From: Longimicrobiales bacterium
Lineage (GTDB): Bacteria > Gemmatimonadota > Gemmatimonadetes > Longimicrobiales > Gaopeijiaceae
Direction of reading: 5' to 3'
Assembly: GCA_965219445.1 (NCBI GenBank)
Contig: CBDCNQ010000004.1
Coordinates: 1,120,001 to 1,184,000, forward strand
Length of the DNA: 64,000 bases
Position 1 is the first letter of the stretch; each line of letters starts with the position of its first letter. The notes under the pieces were generated by a model that was given only the letters and a program-made list of their open reading frames with translations, was not told the DNA's origin and did no database searches. A program made the position numbers and the translations under genes. Positions 45,742 to 56,279 of this stretch are shown here, piece by piece.

Positions 45742-47249
45742 GCACATCCGCTGAACACATGAGCCAGCAGGACCTTGAGTCCTACCTCTGGGGCGCCGCG
45801 AAGCTCTTGCGGGGCCTGATCGATGCCGGCGACTACAAGCAGTACGTCTTCCCGTTGCTCTTCTTCAAGCGCCTGTCGGACGTGTGGGACGAGGAGTACC
45901 AACGCGCGCGCGACGAGACGGGTAACGCTCGGGCCACTGCCGATGACCGTTTCGTGATCCCCGACGGCGCACACTGGTCCGACGTCCGCAGTGCGTCTCG
46001 CGACGTGGGCCGGGCACTGCTTAAGGCCTTCCGCGCCATTGAGGCGGCCAACCCGGAGCGCCTGAACGGCGTCTTCGGGAATGCCTCGTGGACAGACAAG
46101 GCGCAGATGCCCGACGAGACGCTGAAGAATCTCATCGAGCACTTTTCACAGCACACCTTGAGCTTGGCCAAGGTCCCAGAGGACGAGCTGGGCAACGGCT
46201 ACGAGTACCTCATCAAGCAGTTCGCCGCCGACAGCGGCCACACCGCGCAGGAATTTTACACCAACCGCACCGTGGTCCATCTCATGACGCAGATGCTTGA
46301 GCCGCAACCGGGTGATCGCATCTACGATCCAACGGCCGGCACGGCCGGCATGCTCATCTCGTCGCTGGCGGAGGTGAAACGCCGAGGCGGTGACGCGCGC
46401 ACGCTGGGGCTATACGGCCAGGAGCTGATCCACATCACGGCCGCCATTGCCCGGATGAACTTGGTCCTGCACGGCGTGGAAGACTTCGAGATCGTCGCGG
46501 GCAACACGTTGAGCCAGCCAGCATTCATCGACCGCGACCACCTACGGACTTTCGACGTGGTCCTCGCCAATCCGCCGTACTCGATCAAGAAGTGGAACCG
46601 CGAGGCGTGGCAGCACGACCCCTGGGGCCGCAACTTCCTCGGGACGCCGCCGCAGGGCCGCGCCGACTACGCCTTCTTCCAGCACATCCTCAAGAGCCTC
46701 GACCCACAGACCGGCCGCTGCGCAATTCTCTTCCCGCATGGTGTGCTCTTCCGCAACGAAGAAGCGGCGATGCGGCGACAGCTTGTCGAGTTGGACCTTC
46801 TCGAGTGTGTGCTCGGCCTCGGACCGAACCTCTTCTATAACTCGCCCATGGAAGCCTGCGTGGTGGTGTGCCGAACACGGAAGCCCTCCGGCCGCGAGGG
46901 AAAGGTCTTGTTCATCGACGCTGTGCATGACGTGGCACGGGAGCGGGCCCAGAGCTTCCTCAAGGCCGAACATCAGCAGCGCATTCTCACCGCCTATCAG
47001 GCGTTTACCGATGACCCCGGCTTCGCCAAGGTCGCGACGGCGACGGAAATCCTCCAGAAGGACGGCAACCTGTCGATCTCACGCTACGTGCGGCCAGTTG
47101 CCGGTGCAGCCGACGACGCCAGCCCAGGCGGCGATCTGCGGAGCGCTTGGGCCGAGTTCGAAGCGAGCGGCCGCGATTTCTGGCCGCAGATGGACGCGCT
47201 CGTAGACATACTGGATGGCGTTGCCACAGAGGAGACGTCCGATGCTTAA
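45738..47249 (+). CDS. hsdM: Type I R-M methyltransferase subunit M2 (NPPY)
   Basis: LWGAAKLLRG, EFYT, YDPTAGTAGML, LYGQE, ANPPY and FPHGVLFR. Confidence 0.95.
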   Translation: MSTSAEHMSQQDLESYLWGAAKLLRGLIDAGDYKQYVFPLLFFKRLSDVWDEEYQRARDETGNARATADDRFVIPDGAHWSDVRSASRDVGRALLKAFRAIEAANPERLNGVFGNASWTDKAQMPDETLKNLIEHFSQHTLSLAKVPEDELGNGYEYLIKQFAADSGHTAQEFYTNRTVVHLMTQMLEPQPGDRIYDPTAGTAGMLISSLAEVKRRGGDARTLGLYGQELIHITAAIARMNLVLHGVEDFEIVAGNTLSQPAFIDRDHLRTFDVVLANPPYSIKKWNREAWQHDPWGRNFLGTPPQGRADYAFFQHILKSLDPQTGRCAILFPHGVLFRNEEAAMRRQLVELDLLECVLGLGPNLFYNSPMEACVVVCRTRKPSGREGKVLFIDAVHDVARERAQSFLKAEHQQRILTAYQAFTDDPGFAKVATATEILQKDGNLSISRYVRPVAGAADDASPGGDLRSAWAEFEASGRDFWPQMDALVDILDGVATEETSDA

Positions 47250-48423
47250 ATCGGCGTCCAAGAACGGGTGGATCAAGCACCGCTTCGATGAGATGGCGGT
47301 CGTGGTCAATGACCGCATCGATGACCCTGCCAAAGCCGACGTTGAGTACTACGTCGGCCTTGAGCATCTCGACTCTGAGTCACTCGCCATCCGTCGATGG
47401 GGAGCACCCTCTGACGTAGGTGCAACCAAACTGCGATTTCGGGCTGGTGACATCATCTTCGGTCGGCGGCGGGTGTACCAACGCAAGCTGGCGGTGGCCG
47501 ACTTTGACGGCATTTGTTCGGCGCACGCCATGGTACTCCGGGCGAAGCCAGCCGTCGCGTTGCCTGAGTTCCTACCATTTTTCATGCAGAGCGACCTCTT
47601 TATGGAGAGGGCGAGGGAGATTTCTGTCGGATCCCTGTCGCCGACAATCAACTGGAAGACCTTGGCGAAGGAAGAGTTCGCCCTGCCGCCGCTGGGAGAG
47701 CAGCGGCGGATTGCTGAGGTTCTAGGTGCAGCGGAGTCGGTGGTTGAGTCGCTACGTAACCTGAGACGATCGCTCCACGCTGTAGAAATCGGACACCTTG
47801 AGGACGTCATGCTCGGAATGCCTAATAGTGCACTTGTACCTGTGGCGACACTACTCCGCGAGCCGCCGCGAAACGGCATCTCCCCGAGTGTAAACTCCGA
47901 TGGAGAAGGCCTCAAGACAGTGAGTATCAGCGCGGTCAGTGACGGGATCTTCGATCCAACCGGGTGCATCAAACATGCGAAGATCGATGCTGACGTTGCC
48001 TGCCAGTTCTTTGTAAAGCGCGGGGATGCCTTTGTCATTCGTGGCAACGGGAATCGTCAACTTTGCGGCAAGGTGGGCCTCAGCGACGAATCCCACGATG
48101 AACTCTTCTACCCGGATCTTCTAATTCGGCTTCGTTTTGACACGAACAAAATTCTCCCGCAGTTCGCAGTAGCACAGTGGAACTTGCCCAGCGTCCATAG
48201 GCGGCTTAGTGCTAAAGCTAAGTCATCAAATGGGATCTGGAAGGTCAATGGACAAGACATCCGTGCTCACCATCTCTTCGCCCCTGCTCCTGCGGAACAG
48301 CGGAGCATGATGGGAGATCTCGCCACGCTTCGGGCGGGTCTTTGGAATGTCCGGGCACGCGAAGGAGCCGCTCAGCGTATCAAAGGGATATTAACGACAG
48401 AGGTTGGGTCAATAGGTGTGTAA
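47242..48423 (+). CDS. hsdS: Type I R-M specificity subunit
   Basis: Two TRDs with PPLGEQRRIA and PAPAEQR conserved regions; the last codons and stop lie inside the IS256 repeat. Confidence 0.9.
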   Translation: MLKSASKNGWIKHRFDEMAVVVNDRIDDPAKADVEYYVGLEHLDSESLAIRRWGAPSDVGATKLRFRAGDIIFGRRRVYQRKLAVADFDGICSAHAMVLRAKPAVALPEFLPFFMQSDLFMERAREISVGSLSPTINWKTLAKEEFALPPLGEQRRIAEVLGAAESVVESLRNLRRSLHAVEIGHLEDVMLGMPNSALVPVATLLREPPRNGISPSVNSDGEGLKTVSISAVSDGIFDPTGCIKHAKIDADVACQFFVKRGDAFVIRGNGNRQLCGKVGLSDESHDELFYPDLLIRLRFDTNKILPQFAVAQWNLPSVHRRLSAKAKSSNGIWKVNGQDIRAHHLFAPAPAEQRSMMGDLATLRAGLWNVRAREGAAQRIKGILTTEVGSIGV

Positions 48424-48428
48424 ATGTT

Positions 48429-49673
48429 TCAGGCGGCGTTTTTCCGCTGTTGGGTTGAGACGGGCTTTCCGTCTTCGAACTTTCTTCCTTCAAATACGTC
48501 CTTGAGGAGGTGAGGAGCGTCGAGCCTTCTGAAGCGCTTCTCCGCCACCAAGAGCAGCTTCCAGATCAGCGCCGTAGCGCTCTCGACCCGCTTGAAGCGC
48601 TTCGCCGCCGTTGTCCTGAGCCGTACTGCGGCAAAGGGGCTCTCGACCACGTTCGTCGTGCGTAGATGCTTCCAGTGGTCCTCGGGGAAGTCGTAGAACG
48701 CCACCATCCGCTCCCAGTCGTCCTCGAGTACATCCACCGCCTTCGGATACCACGGTCTGTAGCGCCTGGCGAACGCCTCACGGGCCTTCAGCGCCTCGGA
48801 CCGCCTCGGTGCGTAGACCACGGTCCTGAGAAGGTCCTTCGCCTCGCTCTGCTCCCGCTGAGGCAGCCGGTCCAGCACGTTCCTCATCTTGTGGTTCCAG
48901 CACCGTTGCTCGCCCGCCTCAGGCCATACCTGCCGTACTGCGCCCCAGATCGCCGCGTTGCCGTCCGCCATCAAAAGCCGGGGCGCCTCGATGCCGCGTG
49001 CCTTCAGATCCCGCAACACCTCGGACCAGGACTCGACCGACTCTCGGTAGCCCGATCTCAGGGCCAACACCTCCTTCGTACCATCTCGCATCGCACCGAG
49101 AACCACCAGCAGCGCTGCCTTGTCCCGCTCGAGCCCCGCCTTCACGTAGATCCCGTCCGCCCAGACGTAGACGACCTCACGGTCGGCCAGCGAGCGCTTC
49201 GACCATTCCTCGAATTTCCTTGTCCATCCCGCCCGCAGCCGCCAAATCGAAGACTTCGACAACGGGGCCCCCTCGCCCAGCAGGCCCCGCATCGCCAGCT
49301 CGAAGTCTCCCTCCGCCAGCCCGTGCAGATACAGCTCCGGAAGCAGAGCACCCACCTCCTTCGTCCGTCGTGCGAACAACGGCAACACCCGACTCTCGAA
49401 CCGCTCCTCAATGCCTCGAACCCGGGGCCGTCGGAGCATGATCGTGCCCGAGCTCATCGCCAGCCGCCGAGCCTTGCCGTAGCCGTTGCGGTAGCCTGGC
49501 GCCGGGTCTACGACCGTCTTCCGCTCCGACTTCTCCCGGCCGAGCAACTCCGTCACTTCCTCCTCCAGAATCCGCTGGACCATCTCCTGGGCCTTCTCAC
49601 GAACCAGCGCTTCCAAGCACTCCCACGTCGGCGTGCTGGACTCACTCTCGGGTCCCACCATATTCTTCCTCAC
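48429..49673 (-). CDS. IS256 family transposase
   Basis: YRNGY, RPRVR, WADGIY (D), MADG (D), QRCWNH and TTNVVE (E). Confidence 0.95.
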   Translation of the reverse strand: MRKNMVGPESESSTPTWECLEALVREKAQEMVQRILEEEVTELLGREKSERKTVVDPAPGYRNGYGKARRLAMSSGTIMLRRPRVRGIEERFESRVLPLFARRTKEVGALLPELYLHGLAEGDFELAMRGLLGEGAPLSKSSIWRLRAGWTRKFEEWSKRSLADREVVYVWADGIYVKAGLERDKAALLVVLGAMRDGTKEVLALRSGYRESVESWSEVLRDLKARGIEAPRLLMADGNAAIWGAVRQVWPEAGEQRCWNHKMRNVLDRLPQREQSEAKDLLRTVVYAPRRSEALKAREAFARRYRPWYPKAVDVLEDDWERMVAFYDFPEDHWKHLRTTNVVESPFAAVRLRTTAAKRFKRVESATALIWKLLLVAEKRFRRLDAPHLLKDVFEGRKFEDGKPVSTQQRKNAA

Positions 49674-49766
49674 GAGGCATCGTTCCTTTCCCCCGGGCGC
49701 TCACCCGGGATTCGCTGGTTAACTTCTTACTACCTAGCGGAAAGGTACGTCGCCTCTTTTTTTACA

Positions 49767-51666
49767 ATCGGGATAGGGGAGGACCGGCGATCCCGGTCCT
49801 TCCCCTCCCACACCACCAGGCATGCGGGTCCGCACCTGGCGGTTCGGTGAGTTGAGGTCAGTACGGCGTGAGCCGGGGCACACCCAGCTCGTCGAAGTAC
49901 GCCCCTGGCAAGGCCGTGTGCAGGGCGTGGTGCGCGGCCACGTGCCACCAGCTTCGCGCGAACCGAGCAGCTCGCCAGGCGAGGTTCTCGCTCACACCGC
50001 GAGCCCTCAACTCCCGGTACGCTGTCCTTCCCCGTTTCCACTGGCGTAATTGCAACGTACGCAGCCGGCGGTGGATCCATTGGTCCAGGTCTCGGAAAAC
50101 CCCCGGTGTATCCGCTAAGCCGAAGTATGCCTTCCACCCCAGCACGTAGCGCCGTAGCTCTTCTGCCACCTGTTGCAGGCTCCGCCCGCCACTCCGGCTT
50201 GTAATCTGCCGGACTCGCTCCTTGAACTTCGTCAGGGCCTTCTTGCTGACCCGGCGCTTCACGACCTTCCCTGCCGCTACCCAGAAGCTGTAGCCCAGGA
50301 ACTGTCGATCCCACACTCGCGCCACCGCGCTCTTTTCCTCGTTGACCTGAAGCCGAAGTTTCCCGTACAAGTGCCTCAGCGCCTGCATCACACGTTGTCC
50401 TGCCCGCCTCGACCGCACGTATACATTGCAGTCATCGGCGTACCGGACAAACGCGTGTCCGCGTAGCTCCAACTCCTTGTCCACTTCGTCCAGGAGCACG
50501 TTCGCCAGCAACGGCGACAACGGTCCGCCCTGAGGCGTCCCCATGTGCCGCTCCATCACCACCCCGTTCGCCATGACTCCGGCTTCCAGGTAGCGACGGA
50601 GGATCCGCAGCATCGCCTTATCCTCGATCCGCTTTGCCAGCCGCCCCATCAGCACGTCGTGGTTCACCCGGTCGAAAAACTTCTCCAGGTCCACATCCAC
50701 CACCCATCGTCTCCCCTCCTGGATGTAGTGCTGCGCTTCGCGCACCGCATCGTGCGCTCGGCGCCCAGGCCGGAAGCCGTGGCTGTGCCGACTGAACGTC
50801 GGGTCGAACCTCGGTTGCATCACCTGCAGGATGGCTTGTTGGATGAACCGGTCCAGCACGGTCGGAATCCCCAACTCCCGGACCCCTCCCCCACTCTTCG
50901 GTATCTCCTGCCTTCGTACCGGCTTCGGTTGGTAGGTCCCCGCCAGCAACCGCTGTCGGATCTCCCCCCAGTGCCTGCGCAAGTACTCTGGCAGCTCCTC
51001 CACGTTCATCCCGTCGATGCCCGGACTGCCCTTATTCTGCCGCACGCGTTTCAACGCTCCTACGAGGTTGGCACGCCCGACCACCTCCTGCATCAGGAGA
51101 TGCTCGCTTCCTGAGCGCTCGTCTCCATGGGCCACCGTTCCGGCTTCGCCACTCCCCTCTACCTTCGGGGCTTCACCCCTATCCTCCAGTGGGAGCTCCA
51201 GTTGCCTGGACTCCTGGCGCATGGCCTTGCCGAGGTCCACGGTCGTCACGCTCTCCTCTCCGTTCGGCCCTTCGTCCGACAAAGCTGGGTCCAAGCGCAT
51301 CATGCACTTCGTCGGCCTACTATGGCCTCTGCTGACTTCTCGCTCCGCCGGCAGGCCCAACAGCGCAGTGCCGGCGTCACCCTTTCAGGCGTCAGGCGAG
51401 ACCTCCCCGGGTAAGAACGATGACCTTCCCCGCACAATCGCCGGATCTACGCCGCTTCCCCTTGGTCGCAGGAGCTTCGCGGTCAGTGGTCCGCTCGCCC
51501 CGGTCCGCAGCGCCTCGTATCCGGTTCCTGTTCGTCGACTCACGGGTTCGTTTCACGCTTCGTTCAGCGTACGCCTCACGACGAACGCCTTGCGCTTCCC
51601 TTCGGTCCCTGCGACCAGGTTCCGGGAGGACTTTCACCTCCAAGTCATCGCCCATGCCGGGCCCAC
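49767..51666 (-). mobile_element. Group II intron, bacterial class C (IIC), 1900 nt
   Basis: 5' GTGGGCCCGGCATGGG; D5 GAACCGCCAGGTGCGGACCCGCATGCCTGGTGGTGT with a CGC triad; D6 hairpin ending CTATCCCGAT. Removing it restores the IS256 repeat. Confidence 0.92.
49858..51222 (-). CDS. ltrA: Group II intron reverse transcriptase/maturase, no endonuclease domain
   Basis: PGIDG, RELGIPTVLDR, DLEKFFD, GTPQGGPLSPLLAN, RYADD, FLG and GWKAYF; start uncertain. Confidence 0.95.
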   Translation of the reverse strand: MRQESRQLELPLEDRGEAPKVEGSGEAGTVAHGDERSGSEHLLMQEVVGRANLVGALKRVRQNKGSPGIDGMNVEELPEYLRRHWGEIRQRLLAGTYQPKPVRRQEIPKSGGGVRELGIPTVLDRFIQQAILQVMQPRFDPTFSRHSHGFRPGRRAHDAVREAQHYIQEGRRWVVDVDLEKFFDRVNHDVLMGRLAKRIEDKAMLRILRRYLEAGVMANGVVMERHMGTPQGGPLSPLLANVLLDEVDKELELRGHAFVRYADDCNVYVRSRRAGQRVMQALRHLYGKLRLQVNEEKSAVARVWDRQFLGYSFWVAAGKVVKRRVSKKALTKFKERVRQITSRSGGRSLQQVAEELRRYVLGWKAYFGLADTPGVFRDLDQWIHRRLRTLQLRQWKRGRTAYRELRARGVSENLAWRAARFARSWWHVAAHHALHTALPGAYFDELGVPRLTPY

Positions 51667-51686
51667 CACCCTTCTATGGGGCTGGC

Positions 51687-51692
51687 GGTCAA
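51687..51692 (-). promoter_or_regulatory. -35 box (TTGACC) of the IS110 circle-junction promoter; -10 CATCAT is at 53265-53260
   Basis: Joining the right end to the left end through AAGG gives TTGACC-N17-CATCAT. Confidence 0.7.
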
Positions 51693-51844
51693 GACGCACC
51701 TTCCCCACGCGCCGTCGGCTCATTTTTTGACCGTCGGCGTCCGCATGGTTTGGATTGCCCGGTCGACGACTCAGGGTGGGGAGGGGTGCGCTCGCAGGGT
51801 CCGCATCGCAGTCCGGAAGACGTTCACAGCCGTCGCGTTCTCCG

Positions 51845-52000
51845 CTCTGGAGCGGGAACCATCCTTCTATCTGGGACTCTGTGGCCCATCGCTTCGTTCG
51901 GCTCTCCAGGGGTGCATAGCCTTTGAGTGGGGGCTTGGGCTCTCTGCCCCGGCCCACGGTGTGTATGGATGCTGTCCCCTGTAACCGGTTCGCTTCCGTT
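51845..52000 (-). ncRNA. Predicted bridge RNA/seekRNA core (target- and donor-binding loops); ends approximate
   Basis: Loop 1: cagggg..gcat-cca[TACACACC]gtggg..cccac[TCAAAGG]ct-atgc-a-cccctg. Loop 2: gaac[gaagcga]tggg..ccca[gATAGAAGGatg]gttc. The guides match the target and donor. Confidence 0.8.
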
Positions 52001-52058
52001 TCGTCGGACCCCATGTTGTGACCGCTTTCGACCCCACGCTCGCCGATCCCAGGCCGGT

Positions 52059-53114
52059 TTACTCCGTCGCTTCCAGTCTCTTGGGGTCGTACGCTTCGCC
52101 CGTGCGCCACACCGCTAGCACGATCGAGGCGAGCTGACGCGCGATCGTCAGCTTCGCCAGATTCGGCTTCGTGCCCCCCTCCAGGAGTCGCTCGTAGTGG
52201 CGGTACAAGGGCTCGTCCTCGGCCCGACCGATCACCGTCGTCGCTGCGCCCTTGAACACACGCTTCAGCGTGTGGTTGAAGTTCCGATTCAGCCCCCGCG
52301 TCTGCTGTACCGGTTCCCTTACCCACCGCCCACCCGGACCCCGCACCCAGTCCGACGAGCTCCGCATCACGACGCCCAGTCCGCAGTACGCCCAGAACCT
52401 GCTCCGGCTCTGGAACCGGTACGGCGTCACCACCACCGGCAGGAGCTCCGCCGTCCGGATCGGACCCAGACCCGGGCACGTCTTCAGCACATGCCACTCT
52501 CGATGCTTGCGTGCTTCCGCCAGCAACGCCTTCTCGGCCTTCGCCCTCAATGCCACGAGTGCGTCGTGCTCCTCGTACAGCAACCCGGCCGTCGTCCTGC
52601 TCGCTTCCGGCAGCTTGGCCAACCACTCCTCCCGGTCGCGCTTTAAGTAGACCGAGCGCCCCGCGCCGTAGGCCACTCCTCTCGAGCGCAGCACGCTCTT
52701 GAGCCGGTTCTTCACCCGCACCGTGTCGCCGACCAAGAAGTCGTAGCTCTTCGCCCGTTCCCCCAGCCGCCTGAACTGGCCCCGGTTCTTGTAGACCGTC
52801 GTCTCCAGTGATCCGATCCGCAGCTTCTCCGCCAGGGCAAACGCGTCCAGCTTGTCGGTCTTCGGGCCCCGGCTCTTGCCGACCCCCGCCACCGTCAGCT
52901 CCTCCACGTGCGGCTTCAGCACCTCGTACAGCCACCCCGACAGCGTCCCTTCTTCCAGGCATAAGTGCCGGTTCCTCGGAATCCCTCGCAGCACCTCGAT
53001 CAGCGCCCGCGCGTTCGTCTCCACCACCTGCGAGCCCAAGCGCTTGCCGCTGGGGCCTACAATCCCCAGCGTGCAGCTCGACGCGTGTGCGTCGAGTCCG
53101 ATATACCTCTCCAT
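52059..53114 (-). CDS. IS110 family DEDD recombinase/transposase
   Basis: GAGGAGG RBS; YIGLD, LEEG, KTDKLDA, CPGLG, AYCGL..RSS and ARQL. Confidence 0.95.
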   Translation of the reverse strand: MERYIGLDAHASSCTLGIVGPSGKRLGSQVVETNARALIEVLRGIPRNRHLCLEEGTLSGWLYEVLKPHVEELTVAGVGKSRGPKTDKLDAFALAEKLRIGSLETTVYKNRGQFRRLGERAKSYDFLVGDTVRVKNRLKSVLRSRGVAYGAGRSVYLKRDREEWLAKLPEASRTTAGLLYEEHDALVALRAKAEKALLAEARKHREWHVLKTCPGLGPIRTAELLPVVVTPYRFQSRSRFWAYCGLGVVMRSSSDWVRGPGGRWVREPVQQTRGLNRNFNHTLKRVFKGAATTVIGRAEDEPLYRHYERLLEGGTKPNLAKLTIARQLASIVLAVWRTGEAYDPKRLEATE

Positions 53115-53309
53115 GGGCATCCTCCTCTTGGGTAGGACGGGTTGGGTTGCTTGCTTGCGCGAATAATGATGAACGCGCACCCGCTCCCGGAGGAGAACGC
53201 CTCTTCGTCTTCGGGCTGCTTCGCTGCTGATCGGTACCGGTAGCGGTCGCCATGCCCCTATGATGCCTTTGATCCTAGCTCCCTTGGCGACACACAGGGT
53301 GTGGCCTGG

Positions 53310-56279
53310 ATGGGTAGCTTCAACGAAGCCAATACGGTCGAAGCTTTCATCCGAGACCGTCTATGTGGCGGTACCACACATCACACCGCCGTCCGCTCCG
53401 GCCTGGCCCATCGTCACAGTCAAGTGTCCGGTCTTGGCTGGCACTACCTCGCACCACAGAATCTGTCACGCCAGCCGCACGAAGTCCTCGTTGAGGATCG
53501 TCTCCGTGAGGCGTTGATTCGACTGAACCCGGAAATTGCCGAACAGCCTGACCGTGCGGACGACGTCCTGTACAAGCTCCGCGCCATCATCATGGGCGTA
53601 CGTAGCGACGGGCTTGTCAAGGCCAACGAGGGGTTTGCGGCTTGGCTGACCGGCGAGCGGTCGATGCCGTTTGGCGAGCATGGCGAGCACGTGACCGTCC
53701 GGCTGATTGACTTCGAGGACCTCAAGCGCAATCAATACGTCGTCACCACCCAGTTCACCTACCGTGCCGGCGCGACCGAGAAGCGGGCGGATCTCGTCCT
53801 GCTGGTCAACGGCATTCCCCTGGCGGTAATCGAAGCGAAGACTCCCGTCCGGGCCAGCCAAAGCTGGTTCGACGGCGCACTCCAGATCCATGACGACTAC
53901 GAACGCAATGTCCCGGAGCTGTTCGTTCCAAACGTCATCTCCATCGCCACTGAAGGCAAAGAGTTCCGGTACGGGTCCATCGGTCTGCCGGTTGAACTGT
54001 GGGGACCATGGCGCATCGAGGCGGACGCTGAGACACCGGCCCTTGTGCGCATCGCCCAAGCCGTCGACTCGATGCTACGGCCGAATGTCGTTCTGGATCT
54101 ACTGGCCAACTTCACAGCGTACGCCACGGACAAGAATAAGCGCCGCATCAAGATAGTTGCGCGCCATCAGCAGTACGAGGCCATCAATCGAATCATGGAG
54201 CGTGTGGTCGCGGGCCACCCGAAAAAGGGTCTCATTTGGCATTTTCAAGGTTCGGGCAAGTCCCTCCTGATGCTCTTCGCCGCCCGCAAGTTGCGACTGC
54301 ATGCGGCGCTCAAGAATCCCACCGTGATGGTCGTGGTCGATCGCGTCGACCTCGACAGCCAGATTTCGAGCACGTTCTACGCCGCCGACACACCGAACTT
54401 GGTGAAGGCCGACAGTCGGGTCGAACTGCAGCGCCTGCTGACGCAGGACACTCGAAAGATCATCATCACGACGATCTTCAAGTTTGCGGAGGCCGAGGGT
54501 GTCCTGAACGACCGCGGCAACATCATCGCGATGGTCGACGAAGCCCATCGCACGCAGGAAGGCGATCTTGGCCGCACGATGCGCGAGGCGCTACCAAACG
54601 CTTTTCTGTTCGGCCTGACCGGCACACCGATCAACCGCGCTGACCGCAACACGTTTTACGCCTTTGGGGCCGAGGAGGACCAAGCTGGCTACATGAGCCG
54701 CTACGGTTTCGAGGAATCGATCCGCGACGGCGCCACGATGCCGCTCCACTTCGAGCCGCGGTTACTGGATCTGCACATCGACAAGGAAGCCATCGACCAG
54801 GCGTTCACGCAGCTCACGGGTCGCCTAAGCGACCTGGACAGGGACCAGTTGGCGAAGACTGCCGCGAAGATGGCGGTACTGGTGAAGTCCCCGGAACGGA
54901 TCCAGACGGTCTGCGCCGACATCGCGCGGCACTTCCAAGAGAAGGTCGCGCCGCACGGCTTCGGCGCCCAGGTGGTCACCTTCGACCGCGAAAGCTGTGT
55001 GCTCTACAAGGAAATGCTCGACGAGCACCTGCCGTCTGAGATGTCGGACATCGTGATGACGGTCAACAGCGGCGAGGACCAATATGCCGCGTACCGTCGC
55101 GACCGCGACGCCGAAGAGAAGCTGCTTTACCGATTTCGCGATCCAGCCGACCCACTGAAGATCTTGATCGTCACCTCGAAACTGCTGACGGGGTTCGACG
55201 CGCCTATTCTTCAGGCGATGTACCTCGACAAGCCGCTTCGAGACCATACGCTGCTACAGGCGATCTGCCGCACGAATCGGCCCTTCGGTGAGGTCAAGAC
55301 GCACGGGCTCATCGTTGACTATCTTGGGGTCTTCGACGATGTGGCGCAGGCGATTCAGTTCGACGAGGAAGGAATCACCAGGGTCATCAAGAACATCAGC
55401 GAGTTGGCTGGTCGTCTGCCCGAGGCTGTGCAGAAGTGCCTCGCGTACTTCCCGGACGTCGATCGGATCGTTACCGGTTACGAGGGCCTCGTGGCGGCGC
55501 AGGCCTGCTTACCGACCAACGACGTGCGAGATCACTTCGCCGCCGACTACAGCTACCTGGCGCGATTGTGGGAGGCCCTCTCACCGGATCCTGTCCTGAG
55601 TGCGCACGAGACCGACTACCGCTGGCTCACGCAGGTCTACGAGTCTGTGCGACCTTCGACGGGCACGGGCCGCCTTCTGTGGCATGCACTTGGCCCGAAG
55701 ACCATTGAGCTGATTCACGAGCACGTCCACGTTGACGCCATCAGAGACGACCTCGAAACGCTCGTGCTCGACGCCGATCTCCTTGAGGCTGTGCTCGGCG
55801 CGCCCGATCCAGGGAAAAAAGCGAAGGAGATCGAGATCAAGGTCTCGCGGTGGCTTCGGAAGCGTCTGCACGACCCTCGGTTCAAAGAGCTTGGAGAACG
55901 GCTGGAGGCGCTCAAGGAGAGACATGAGCGGGGACTGCTCACGAGTGTTGAGTTCTTGAAGGAACTGCTTAATCTCGCGCGGGATGTCGTGTCAGCCGAT
56001 CGCACGGTGCCTCCGATGGAACGCGAAGAGCAAGGGAAGGCGGCTCTTACCCAGCTCTTTGAAGAGGCGAGAAATCCCGACACTCCGATCATCGTCGAGC
56101 GCGTTGTGACCGACATCGACGAGATCGTGCGGTACGTTCGGTTCGACGGCTGGCAGAGTACGCATGCGGGCGAACGCGAGGTCAAGCTAGCCCTTCGAAA
56201 AACGCTCTTCAAGTACAAGCTCCATCAAGATCAGGAGCTGTTCAACAGAGCGTACGGCTACATCAGAGAGTATTACTAA
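53310..56279 (+). CDS. hsdR: Type I restriction endonuclease subunit R
   Basis: ADLVLLVNGIPLAVIEAK, WHFQGSGKS, VDEAHR, GLTGTP, LLTGFDAP and QAICRTNR. Confidence 0.95.
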   Translation: MGSFNEANTVEAFIRDRLCGGTTHHTAVRSGLAHRHSQVSGLGWHYLAPQNLSRQPHEVLVEDRLREALIRLNPEIAEQPDRADDVLYKLRAIIMGVRSDGLVKANEGFAAWLTGERSMPFGEHGEHVTVRLIDFEDLKRNQYVVTTQFTYRAGATEKRADLVLLVNGIPLAVIEAKTPVRASQSWFDGALQIHDDYERNVPELFVPNVISIATEGKEFRYGSIGLPVELWGPWRIEADAETPALVRIAQAVDSMLRPNVVLDLLANFTAYATDKNKRRIKIVARHQQYEAINRIMERVVAGHPKKGLIWHFQGSGKSLLMLFAARKLRLHAALKNPTVMVVVDRVDLDSQISSTFYAADTPNLVKADSRVELQRLLTQDTRKIIITTIFKFAEAEGVLNDRGNIIAMVDEAHRTQEGDLGRTMREALPNAFLFGLTGTPINRADRNTFYAFGAEEDQAGYMSRYGFEESIRDGATMPLHFEPRLLDLHIDKEAIDQAFTQLTGRLSDLDRDQLAKTAAKMAVLVKSPERIQTVCADIARHFQEKVAPHGFGAQVVTFDRESCVLYKEMLDEHLPSEMSDIVMTVNSGEDQYAAYRRDRDAEEKLLYRFRDPADPLKILIVTSKLLTGFDAPILQAMYLDKPLRDHTLLQAICRTNRPFGEVKTHGLIVDYLGVFDDVAQAIQFDEEGITRVIKNISELAGRLPEAVQKCLAYFPDVDRIVTGYEGLVAAQACLPTNDVRDHFAADYSYLARLWEALSPDPVLSAHETDYRWLTQVYESVRPSTGTGRLLWHALGPKTIELIHEHVHVDAIRDDLETLVLDADLLEAVLGAPDPGKKAKEIEIKVSRWLRKRLHDPRFKELGERLEALKERHERGLLTSVEFLKELLNLARDVVSADRTVPPMEREEQGKAALTQLFEEARNPDTPIIVERVVTDIDEIVRYVRFDGWQSTHAGEREVKLALRKTLFKYKLHQDQELFNRAYGYIREYY

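Follow-up and report, generated by a model that had tools for sequence, protein, structure and literature searches.

Positions 51854-51981, on the minus strand of the window (the whole stretch of 64,000 nucleotides analysed here), very probably encode the bridge RNA with which an IS110-family recombinase element targets the left terminal repeat of an IS256 insertion sequence resident in the same genome. The assignment is based on the ends of the element, a two-domain fold, guide matches to the target and to both donor ends, site-specific occupancy and covariation between guides and flanks. The observation reported in an earlier note on the same DNA is thereby confirmed and its interpretation supported, the RNA, the circular form and the recombination being what the sequence leads us to expect. 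The window's genome (G000) was compared with other genomes, designated G005, G061, G062, G063 and G064.

In the window, three nested elements on the minus strand separate hsdR from hsdS in a type I restriction operon. The outermost is an IS256 with 26-bp terminal repeats, which carries an IS256-family transposase gene of 414 aa (48429-49673, minus strand; NF033543 295 bits, cut-off 150; PF00872) and whose right terminal repeat (48400-48425, plus strand, read from the sequence) is unoccupied. Its left repeat is interrupted twice, after bp 15 by the IS110-family element and after bp 19 by a group II intron. Read along the minus strand, the order is bp 1-15 of the repeat (53267-53281), the last 6-7 bases of which are the left target; the 1,596-bp IS110-family element (51671-53266), with boundaries common to the G000 copies; bp 16-19, which start the right target (51667-51670); the 1,900-bp intron with its RT gene (49767-51666; Rfam, TIGR04416); and bp 20-26 (49760-49766), both short repeat pieces being recognised by sequence. 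Excision of the element (53266-51671) and the intron (51666-49767) restores GAGCTAGGATCAAAG|GGTGTGTAAAA, and the right repeat reads TCAATAGGTGTGTA, with two mismatches at site positions 5-6. The parted hsdS and hsdR lie at window positions 47215-48423 and 53301-56279, and the hsdS frame ends within the IS256 right repeat. The window composite lacks a flanking duplication proper to it; the 8 bp on its left are identical to the duplication at C4:110843 of G000.

The bridge-RNA core comprises a target-binding followed by a donor-binding domain, and its limits are those of the consensus fold of 25 homologs, which gives the extent of the core and not the ends of the RNA. Each domain consists of a stem, a large internal loop and a hairpin, and all four guides are unpaired, in agreement with the earlier placement of the guides in loops between stems. 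On the minus strand, the right-target guide TACACACC (51965-51958), a complement of the top strand, comes first, followed by the left-target guide TCAAAGG (51926-51920), the right-donor guide ACGAAGC (51897-51891) and the left-donor guide ATAGAAGG (51870-51863). The first, second and fourth, which are assigned by guide match and covariation, are the three strings that the earlier note had located, at the same coordinates. It had also called the remaining donor guide weak, which is real (5/7 to the donor, with mismatches at the two A's, and weak covariation) but typical of the family. In the consensus, 95% of cells pair and 14 of the 27 pairs show two-sided changes; the covariation score, computed on a structure derived from the same 25-sequence alignment, is 0.377 against 0.177 for shuffled alignments (0/500), with slid controls at or below 0.122. 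The RNA folding proposed as a check is thus borne out by the homologs and not by the window RNA alone, which folds no better than shuffles (z -0.67; longer piece, z +1.12). Rfam recognised the intron only and gave no family for the bridge RNA. When the 382-nt non-coding region was shuffled 20,000 times by mononucleotide, both target strings occurred together in a fraction of 0.0002.

Covariation of the guides with the flanks, which had likewise been suggested as a check, was scored in a set reduced from 160 loci to 127 RNA hits, 118 parsed, 117 kept (L194, with a wrong anchor, was left out) and finally 98 representatives. Since the homologs are related and the anchors were trained, the shuffle counts are inflated, and with that reading both target guides matched their own flanks better than in any of 10,000 shuffles: the left-target guide at 6.30 of 8 positions against 4.20 (n=56; 0/10,000), or 4.34 against 2.68 of the 6 non-junction positions, and the right-target guide at 5.44 of 7 against 3.18 (n=80; 0/10,000), taken as the best of three registers for own and shuffled pairs alike. 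The left-donor guide matched its own end at 6.89 of 7 positions against 5.84 (n=80; 0/10,000), a test that is partly circular, as the right-end profile was trained on guide-matched sites. The right-donor guide stays barely above the shuffles (5.04 against 4.92; 27/10,000, with an anchor that overlaps the tested bases) because the left end of the element hardly varies, and it covaries in single cases (GATAC with GTATC; L057, L062). All four guides are unchanged across 22 full-length copies in the window's genome. Three pairing offsets are seen for the right guide (10, 24 and 26 of the 66 cases that are clear), the register varying by 2 nt among homologs, so that the geometry looks looser than the fixed scheme of IS621 (PMC11208158), whose model leaves this variation unexplained. 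A loose target, GGATA(A/G)|G-N5-6-AA(A/G)C, is common to many family members in varied contexts (L021, L023, L183, L184, L190, L228, L248, L256 and others have a target of the GGATA(A/G) type).

Occupancy in the window's genome follows the guides closely. Where the earlier note had expected other copies to share the site, 23 of 24 element left ends lie at one base, bp 15/16 of the IS256 left repeat, in one orientation, and not in unrelated sequences; the remaining one occupies a near-cognate site, TCAAAG|GTGTGAC, outside IS256 (C2:336725). The exact empty 14-mer has no occurrence in G000, and the five IS256 left repeats that are empty are all altered inside it (Fisher test of 22 rejoinable filled sites against 5 empty ones, p=1.2e-5, the copies not being independent). 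None of the 29 IS256 right repeats is occupied, as would follow from the proposal of the earlier note that the mismatch in this repeat explains the choice of the left one. Filled sites rejoin to the empty sequence, which indicates insertion without target duplication. TCAAA was considered as a duplication of host sequence and rejected, as it belongs to the IS256 repeat, the first base of which lies 15 bp ahead of the insertion. Two of the empty left repeats (C4:1221680 and C4:199261) are hybrids of the left target and the element right end (TC|GAAG and TCA|GAAG); they may be scars of imprecise excision that the guide no longer matches, point mutation being the alternative.

Repeated independent insertion is the simplest reading of this pattern, although the element alleles look mosaic, which suggests that copies recombine too. 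An improbable alternative is that the element entered an IS256 repeat once and was from then on carried along as a passenger, either by transposing IS256 copies or through recombination among copies, so that the guide would be a fossil match. The mosaic alleles speak for it, as does the closeness of the five occupied copies of G062 in both of their parts (0-6 and 1-7 substitutions, the distances of L155, whose body is truncated, being left out). Matching 8-9-bp duplications on the own two flanks of 8 of 23 composites also favour it, but they are also expected if IS256 landed first. Passenger and carrier distances, in contrast, are unrelated (rho -0.09 over 17 copies, the pairs not being independent), and two passengers with no substitution between them sit in IS256s that are 144 substitutions apart; recombination between copies could add to this incongruence, given the mosaic alleles. 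In 12 of the 17 full-IS256 composites the IS256 bodies are identical, with passengers that differ by 0-23 substitutions. Spread of a passenger is further opposed by the near-cognate copies outside IS256 (the one in G000 and L139 in G062), by the retention of the full 351-aa frame in 17 of 23 G000 copies and by a separate lineage at the same base, described below. IS256 flanking duplications are swapped between several G000 copies, a sign of genome rearrangement between copies.

Among the related genomes, G062 has five filled left repeats (TCAAAG|A...) and ten empty ones; the latter are all variants, of which eight carry T at the base before the junction (TCAAAT|G) and two resemble the right repeat. 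Most of the empty repeats share the IS256 lineage of the filled ones, and five have their own flanking duplication. In G061, the only element found (L019, a 95% relative) has a left guide changed to TCACTAGG and follows the outer 15 bp of an IS256 right repeat, with one mismatch to this guide and a right flank that is unrelated, rearranged sequence. The eight left repeats read in this genome are all empty, seven of them with a perfect 14-mer, and nine intact right repeats are empty as well. This single, rearranged copy fits the view that the match of the left guide sets the choice of end. A second lineage is represented by L179 (987-2602), which has 69% protein identity, lies on a separate branch and is 83% identical in DNA to L037, an element with different guides. 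The right guide of L179 is identical to that of the window element, its left guide matches, and it occupies the same base in an IS256 left repeat. A tree of 21 proteins, built without the frameshifted L206 and L037 and with three short rows skipped, rejects a single clade for the four IS256-targeting rows (p-AU 0.0022); these rows had been chosen by their guide sequence and named as a group ahead of the first tree. For the guides of L179, convergent retargeting appears to be the likeliest origin, with transfer of the loop or ancestral retention as less likely ones.

These comparisons also bear on the idea that targeting depends mainly on protein, through a preference of the recombinase, recruitment by the IS256 transposase or DNA structure, the RNA matches being secondary. 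The flexible register and the imperfect right-donor guide can be counted for it, and a 2026 preprint on ISPpu10 is said to describe an extra layer of specificity beyond pairing. It is nevertheless very unlikely, since proteins that are about 80% identical use other targets, with guides that change in step, and since in both G000 and G062 empty repeats differ from occupied ones by single changes within the 14-mer. Still less credible is a misplaced boundary, by which the outer 15 bp would belong to the IS110 element and the target match would be a match to its own end: an identical 15 bp (a variant third base being allowed) does precede 23 of 24 element left ends, but these bases run on into the inner half of the repeat in the 42 empty copies of G064, mirror the right repeat and are absent from the off-target copy. 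The earlier note had held that the 14-nt site exists only after removal of the IS110 element and the intron; this is true at the window locus, while in G064 the exact left repeat is found intact 42 times, beside one full element, so that the reconstructed empty site is real and saturation is not universal.

[quoted passage not shown] The left end, GCATCAT (53260-53266), is the right donor, is conserved in homologs and contains a -10-like hexamer, and the right end, ATAGAAG (51671-51677), is the left donor by sequence. Inside them, an imperfect left sub-terminal inverted repeat of 10 bp with a 1-nt bulge (53248-53258) and its right counterpart (51678-51687) were read from the sequence. A -35-like hexamer, TTGACC (51687-51692), would stand 17 nt from CATCAT once the ends are joined, and the joined ends ATAGAAG|GCATCAT are predicted to give a promoter-like TTGACC-17-CATCAT. 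No promoter was found in a scan of the linear element, as is expected while the junction is not joined. The exact circle junction has no match in the window's genome, and the circle (go-back) joint was not seen in four public runs, of which the RNA run gave no coverage of the non-coding region and the raw-read run covered the intron only, so that these runs speak neither for nor against expression; part of the element is present in 20 of the 24 public runs listed.

The recombinase gene (52059-53114, minus strand, 351 aa from the ATG) matches Pfam PF01548 with 39.5 bits and PF02371 with 32.2 bits, both above the cut-off, and NF033542 of NCBIfam with 112, below its cut-off of 140; the product is a divergent member of the IS110 family by these profile matches. 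Residues D8, E54, D87, D90 and S253 are invariant in 16 of 16 aligned homologs, and a weak alignment to IS621 suggests catalytic roles for them. The predicted model (mean pLDDT 85.6) finds its best fold matches in the IS621 and ISCro4 chains (E 1e-13 to 3e-12, 18-20% identity). The nearest public relatives, 95-99% identical, are in records labelled Longimicrobiales, the closest in the plasmid collection searched are at most 27% identical, and 24 pattern matches in the viral contigs searched include no relative of the element. Around the ATG frame, the non-coding sequence measures 388 bp downstream against 152 bp upstream. A 1-nt deletion near the stop codon, shared by five of 23 G000 copies (C2:522577, C3:162173, C4:326809, C5:1611141 and C5:1629065), lengthens the frame, which then has 400 aa and reaches the RNA region.

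By its features the element would work like a bridge recombinase and is of the IS110 family in the broad sense: it has DEDD and Tnp domains with a catalytic serine, a two-loop guide RNA and oriented, site-specific insertion without duplication. It also shares with IS1111 the long non-coding region downstream of the gene and the order in which the complement of the top strand comes ahead of the match to the bottom strand. The criterion given for IS1111 in PMC11187229 is near-perfect sub-terminal repeats of 11-13 bp, 7 bp and 3 bp from the ends; the repeats here are 10 bp long, contain a bulge and are set 8 and 7 bp in from the ends, although the wider range of 7-17 bp given by Durrant et al. 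(PMC11208160) would accommodate their length. In the alignment, the IS1111 motif GL-P----S(T)G is replaced by GLGVVMRSSS, with no P and no G after the serine. IS621-group tests fail as well, with an RNA in the right end and a junction AG|G in place of a left-end RNA and a CT core. The element is therefore filed in neither the IS1111 nor the IS621 group.

Targeting of the inverted repeats of other mobile elements is a known habit of such elements. IS4321/IS5075 reportedly target the terminal repeats of Tn21 (Partridge and Hall 2003), and IS1383 is said to target those of IS1384 (Muller et al. 2001). Like these IS110/IS1111 elements, the present one uses the inverted repeat of another element; it differs in that the target is an IS256-family end, only one end of the two is used and the guide RNA was mapped by covariation. 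The IS1111 elements with a seekRNA, ISEc11, ISKpn4 and ISPa11 (Siddiquee et al. 2024, PMC11187229), resemble it in a guide RNA downstream of the gene, the same guide order, a junction promoter (here predicted), the lack of target duplication and a recombinase size of 330-350 aa (here 351 aa); the imperfect sub-terminal repeats, at 8 and 7 rather than 7 and 3 bp from the ends, and the motif set it apart. With IS621 and ISCro4 (PMC11208160, PMC11208158; PDB 8wt6, 8wt9, 9t56) it shares the fold with DEDD and serine, two internal loops, four guides and a donor loop matching its own junction, while it differs from them by the 18-20% identity, the RNA in the right and not the left end, the reversed guide order, the junction AG|G instead of CT and a right-guide register that varies among members. 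ISEc21 (PMC11187229) shows RNA-guided insertion into a conserved part of another IS and natural retargeting in a relative; unlike here, its target is the coding region of an IS3 transposase and its RNA lies upstream of the gene.

Novelty was therefore overstated in the earlier note, since IS110/IS1111 elements that target inverted repeats are already in print, and both the bridge-RNA mechanism and the habit of targeting the repeats of other elements are known. The part of the claim that stands is the guide against an IS256 end: the literature search, which covered sources other than ISfinder and most subscription papers, yielded no paper on an IS110 element aimed at an IS256 end, one 2026 preprint checked has no mention of IS256, and the supplements of PMC11208160 and PMC11187229, searched except for one scanned file in each, gave no match for the motifs of the element or for 'IS256'. 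Within that literature, the IS256-end target, a divergent clade that departs from the end geometry and motif of IS1111, and the signs of saturation and escape appear to be new.

The probable GG core proposed in the earlier note holds in part. Of the 46 representatives that have both ends, 24 carry G at each side of the two junctions, and for that reason GG was rejected as a fixed core. In 10 of the 46 the left flank ends in AA while the element ends in AG, and in five the base after the right end is not G. These two groups and the G062 cases all fit a strand transfer that maps between two G's, neither of which would be strictly needed in the target, so that there would be no obligatory shared base.

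By analogy with IS621 and ISEc11 (PMC11208160, PMC11187229 and PMC13626964), the ends would join into a circle, ATAGAAG|GCATCAT, thereby creating the TTGACC-17-CATCAT promoter, which would drive transcription of the recombinase and the RNA. Pairing would then hold the two strands of TCAAAG|GGTGTGTA in the target loop and the junction in the donor loop, and the DEDD/Ser enzyme would join target and donor without target duplication, insertion being favoured over excision; the right repeat would be rejected because it mismatches the left guide. A 2026 preprint (10.64898/2026.08.31.748434) describes copy-out circles for IS621 and also half-match insertions; the rise in copy number and the near-cognate copies would be in keeping with these. 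The insert parts bp 1-15 of the IS256 repeat from bp 16-26 and so probably cripples that end. The IS256-family transposase of ISCth4 binds its repeat at bp 1-12 and 14-25 (PMC7780238), so that with 1.6 kb inserted after bp 15 the end should no longer serve as a donor; that study also reports that integration is still possible for a left end of 14 bp, so the IS256 need not be fully immobilised. The element may thus be regarded as a parasite for which IS256 copies are a renewable supply of landing sites.

A more far-reaching reading is possible, although we would lean against it. The element would represent an IS110 subfamily of its own that lacks an obligatory core and has a right-guide register able to slide. 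Its guides would have evolved twice against the same base of the IS256 left repeat, and it would silence IS256 copies by splitting that repeat. An arms race would have followed, in which changes at bp 12-15 allow escape and spread (the eight TCAAAT|G copies of G062), some of them as excision scars, and one guide change redirects the element to the right repeat. The system offers a natural, multi-genome read-out of bridge-RNA specificity, comprising blocking changes, tolerated changes and retargeting of guides. If active, the recombinase, which is divergent (18-20% identity to IS621/ISCro4) and has a purine junction instead of CT, could widen the sequences open to bridge editing. The system also makes it possible to test directly if RNA-guided elements limit how far other insertion sequences spread in their host.

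Several rearranged or decayed forms accompany the element. Tandem duplications of its last ~460-500 bp (bridge RNA and right end) occur in G000 (C5:1612735-1613235) and in L121 of G063; they are joined at short matches inside the gene and amount to one extra copy in G000 and two in G063. Decayed fragments of related elements in G000 consist of a donor-loop piece and a left end after GGATAG (C5:1023333-1023415 and C2:661546-661605). G005, which belongs to the same genus (L093, L105, L114), has 15 matches to a 40%-identical relative, many of them clustered within tens of kb.

Finally, the intron at the IS256 repeat is an incidental late arrival, judging from its other copies. Only the window copy, one of 13, lies in an IS256 repeat, 4 nt into the right target, and targeting of the IS256 repeat by the intron was rejected on this count. 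Public contigs skip exactly its 1,900 bases. The 45 nt upstream of each intron copy form stem-loops of -9 to -34 kcal/mol (values without a shuffle control), and the intron is presumably of class IIC, for which upstream stem-loops are expected. In the window, the IS110 right end forms a hairpin just upstream of the insertion point (51667-51711); the IS110 element would thus have created the landing site of the intron, and the likely order of arrival is IS256, then the IS110 element, then the intron.
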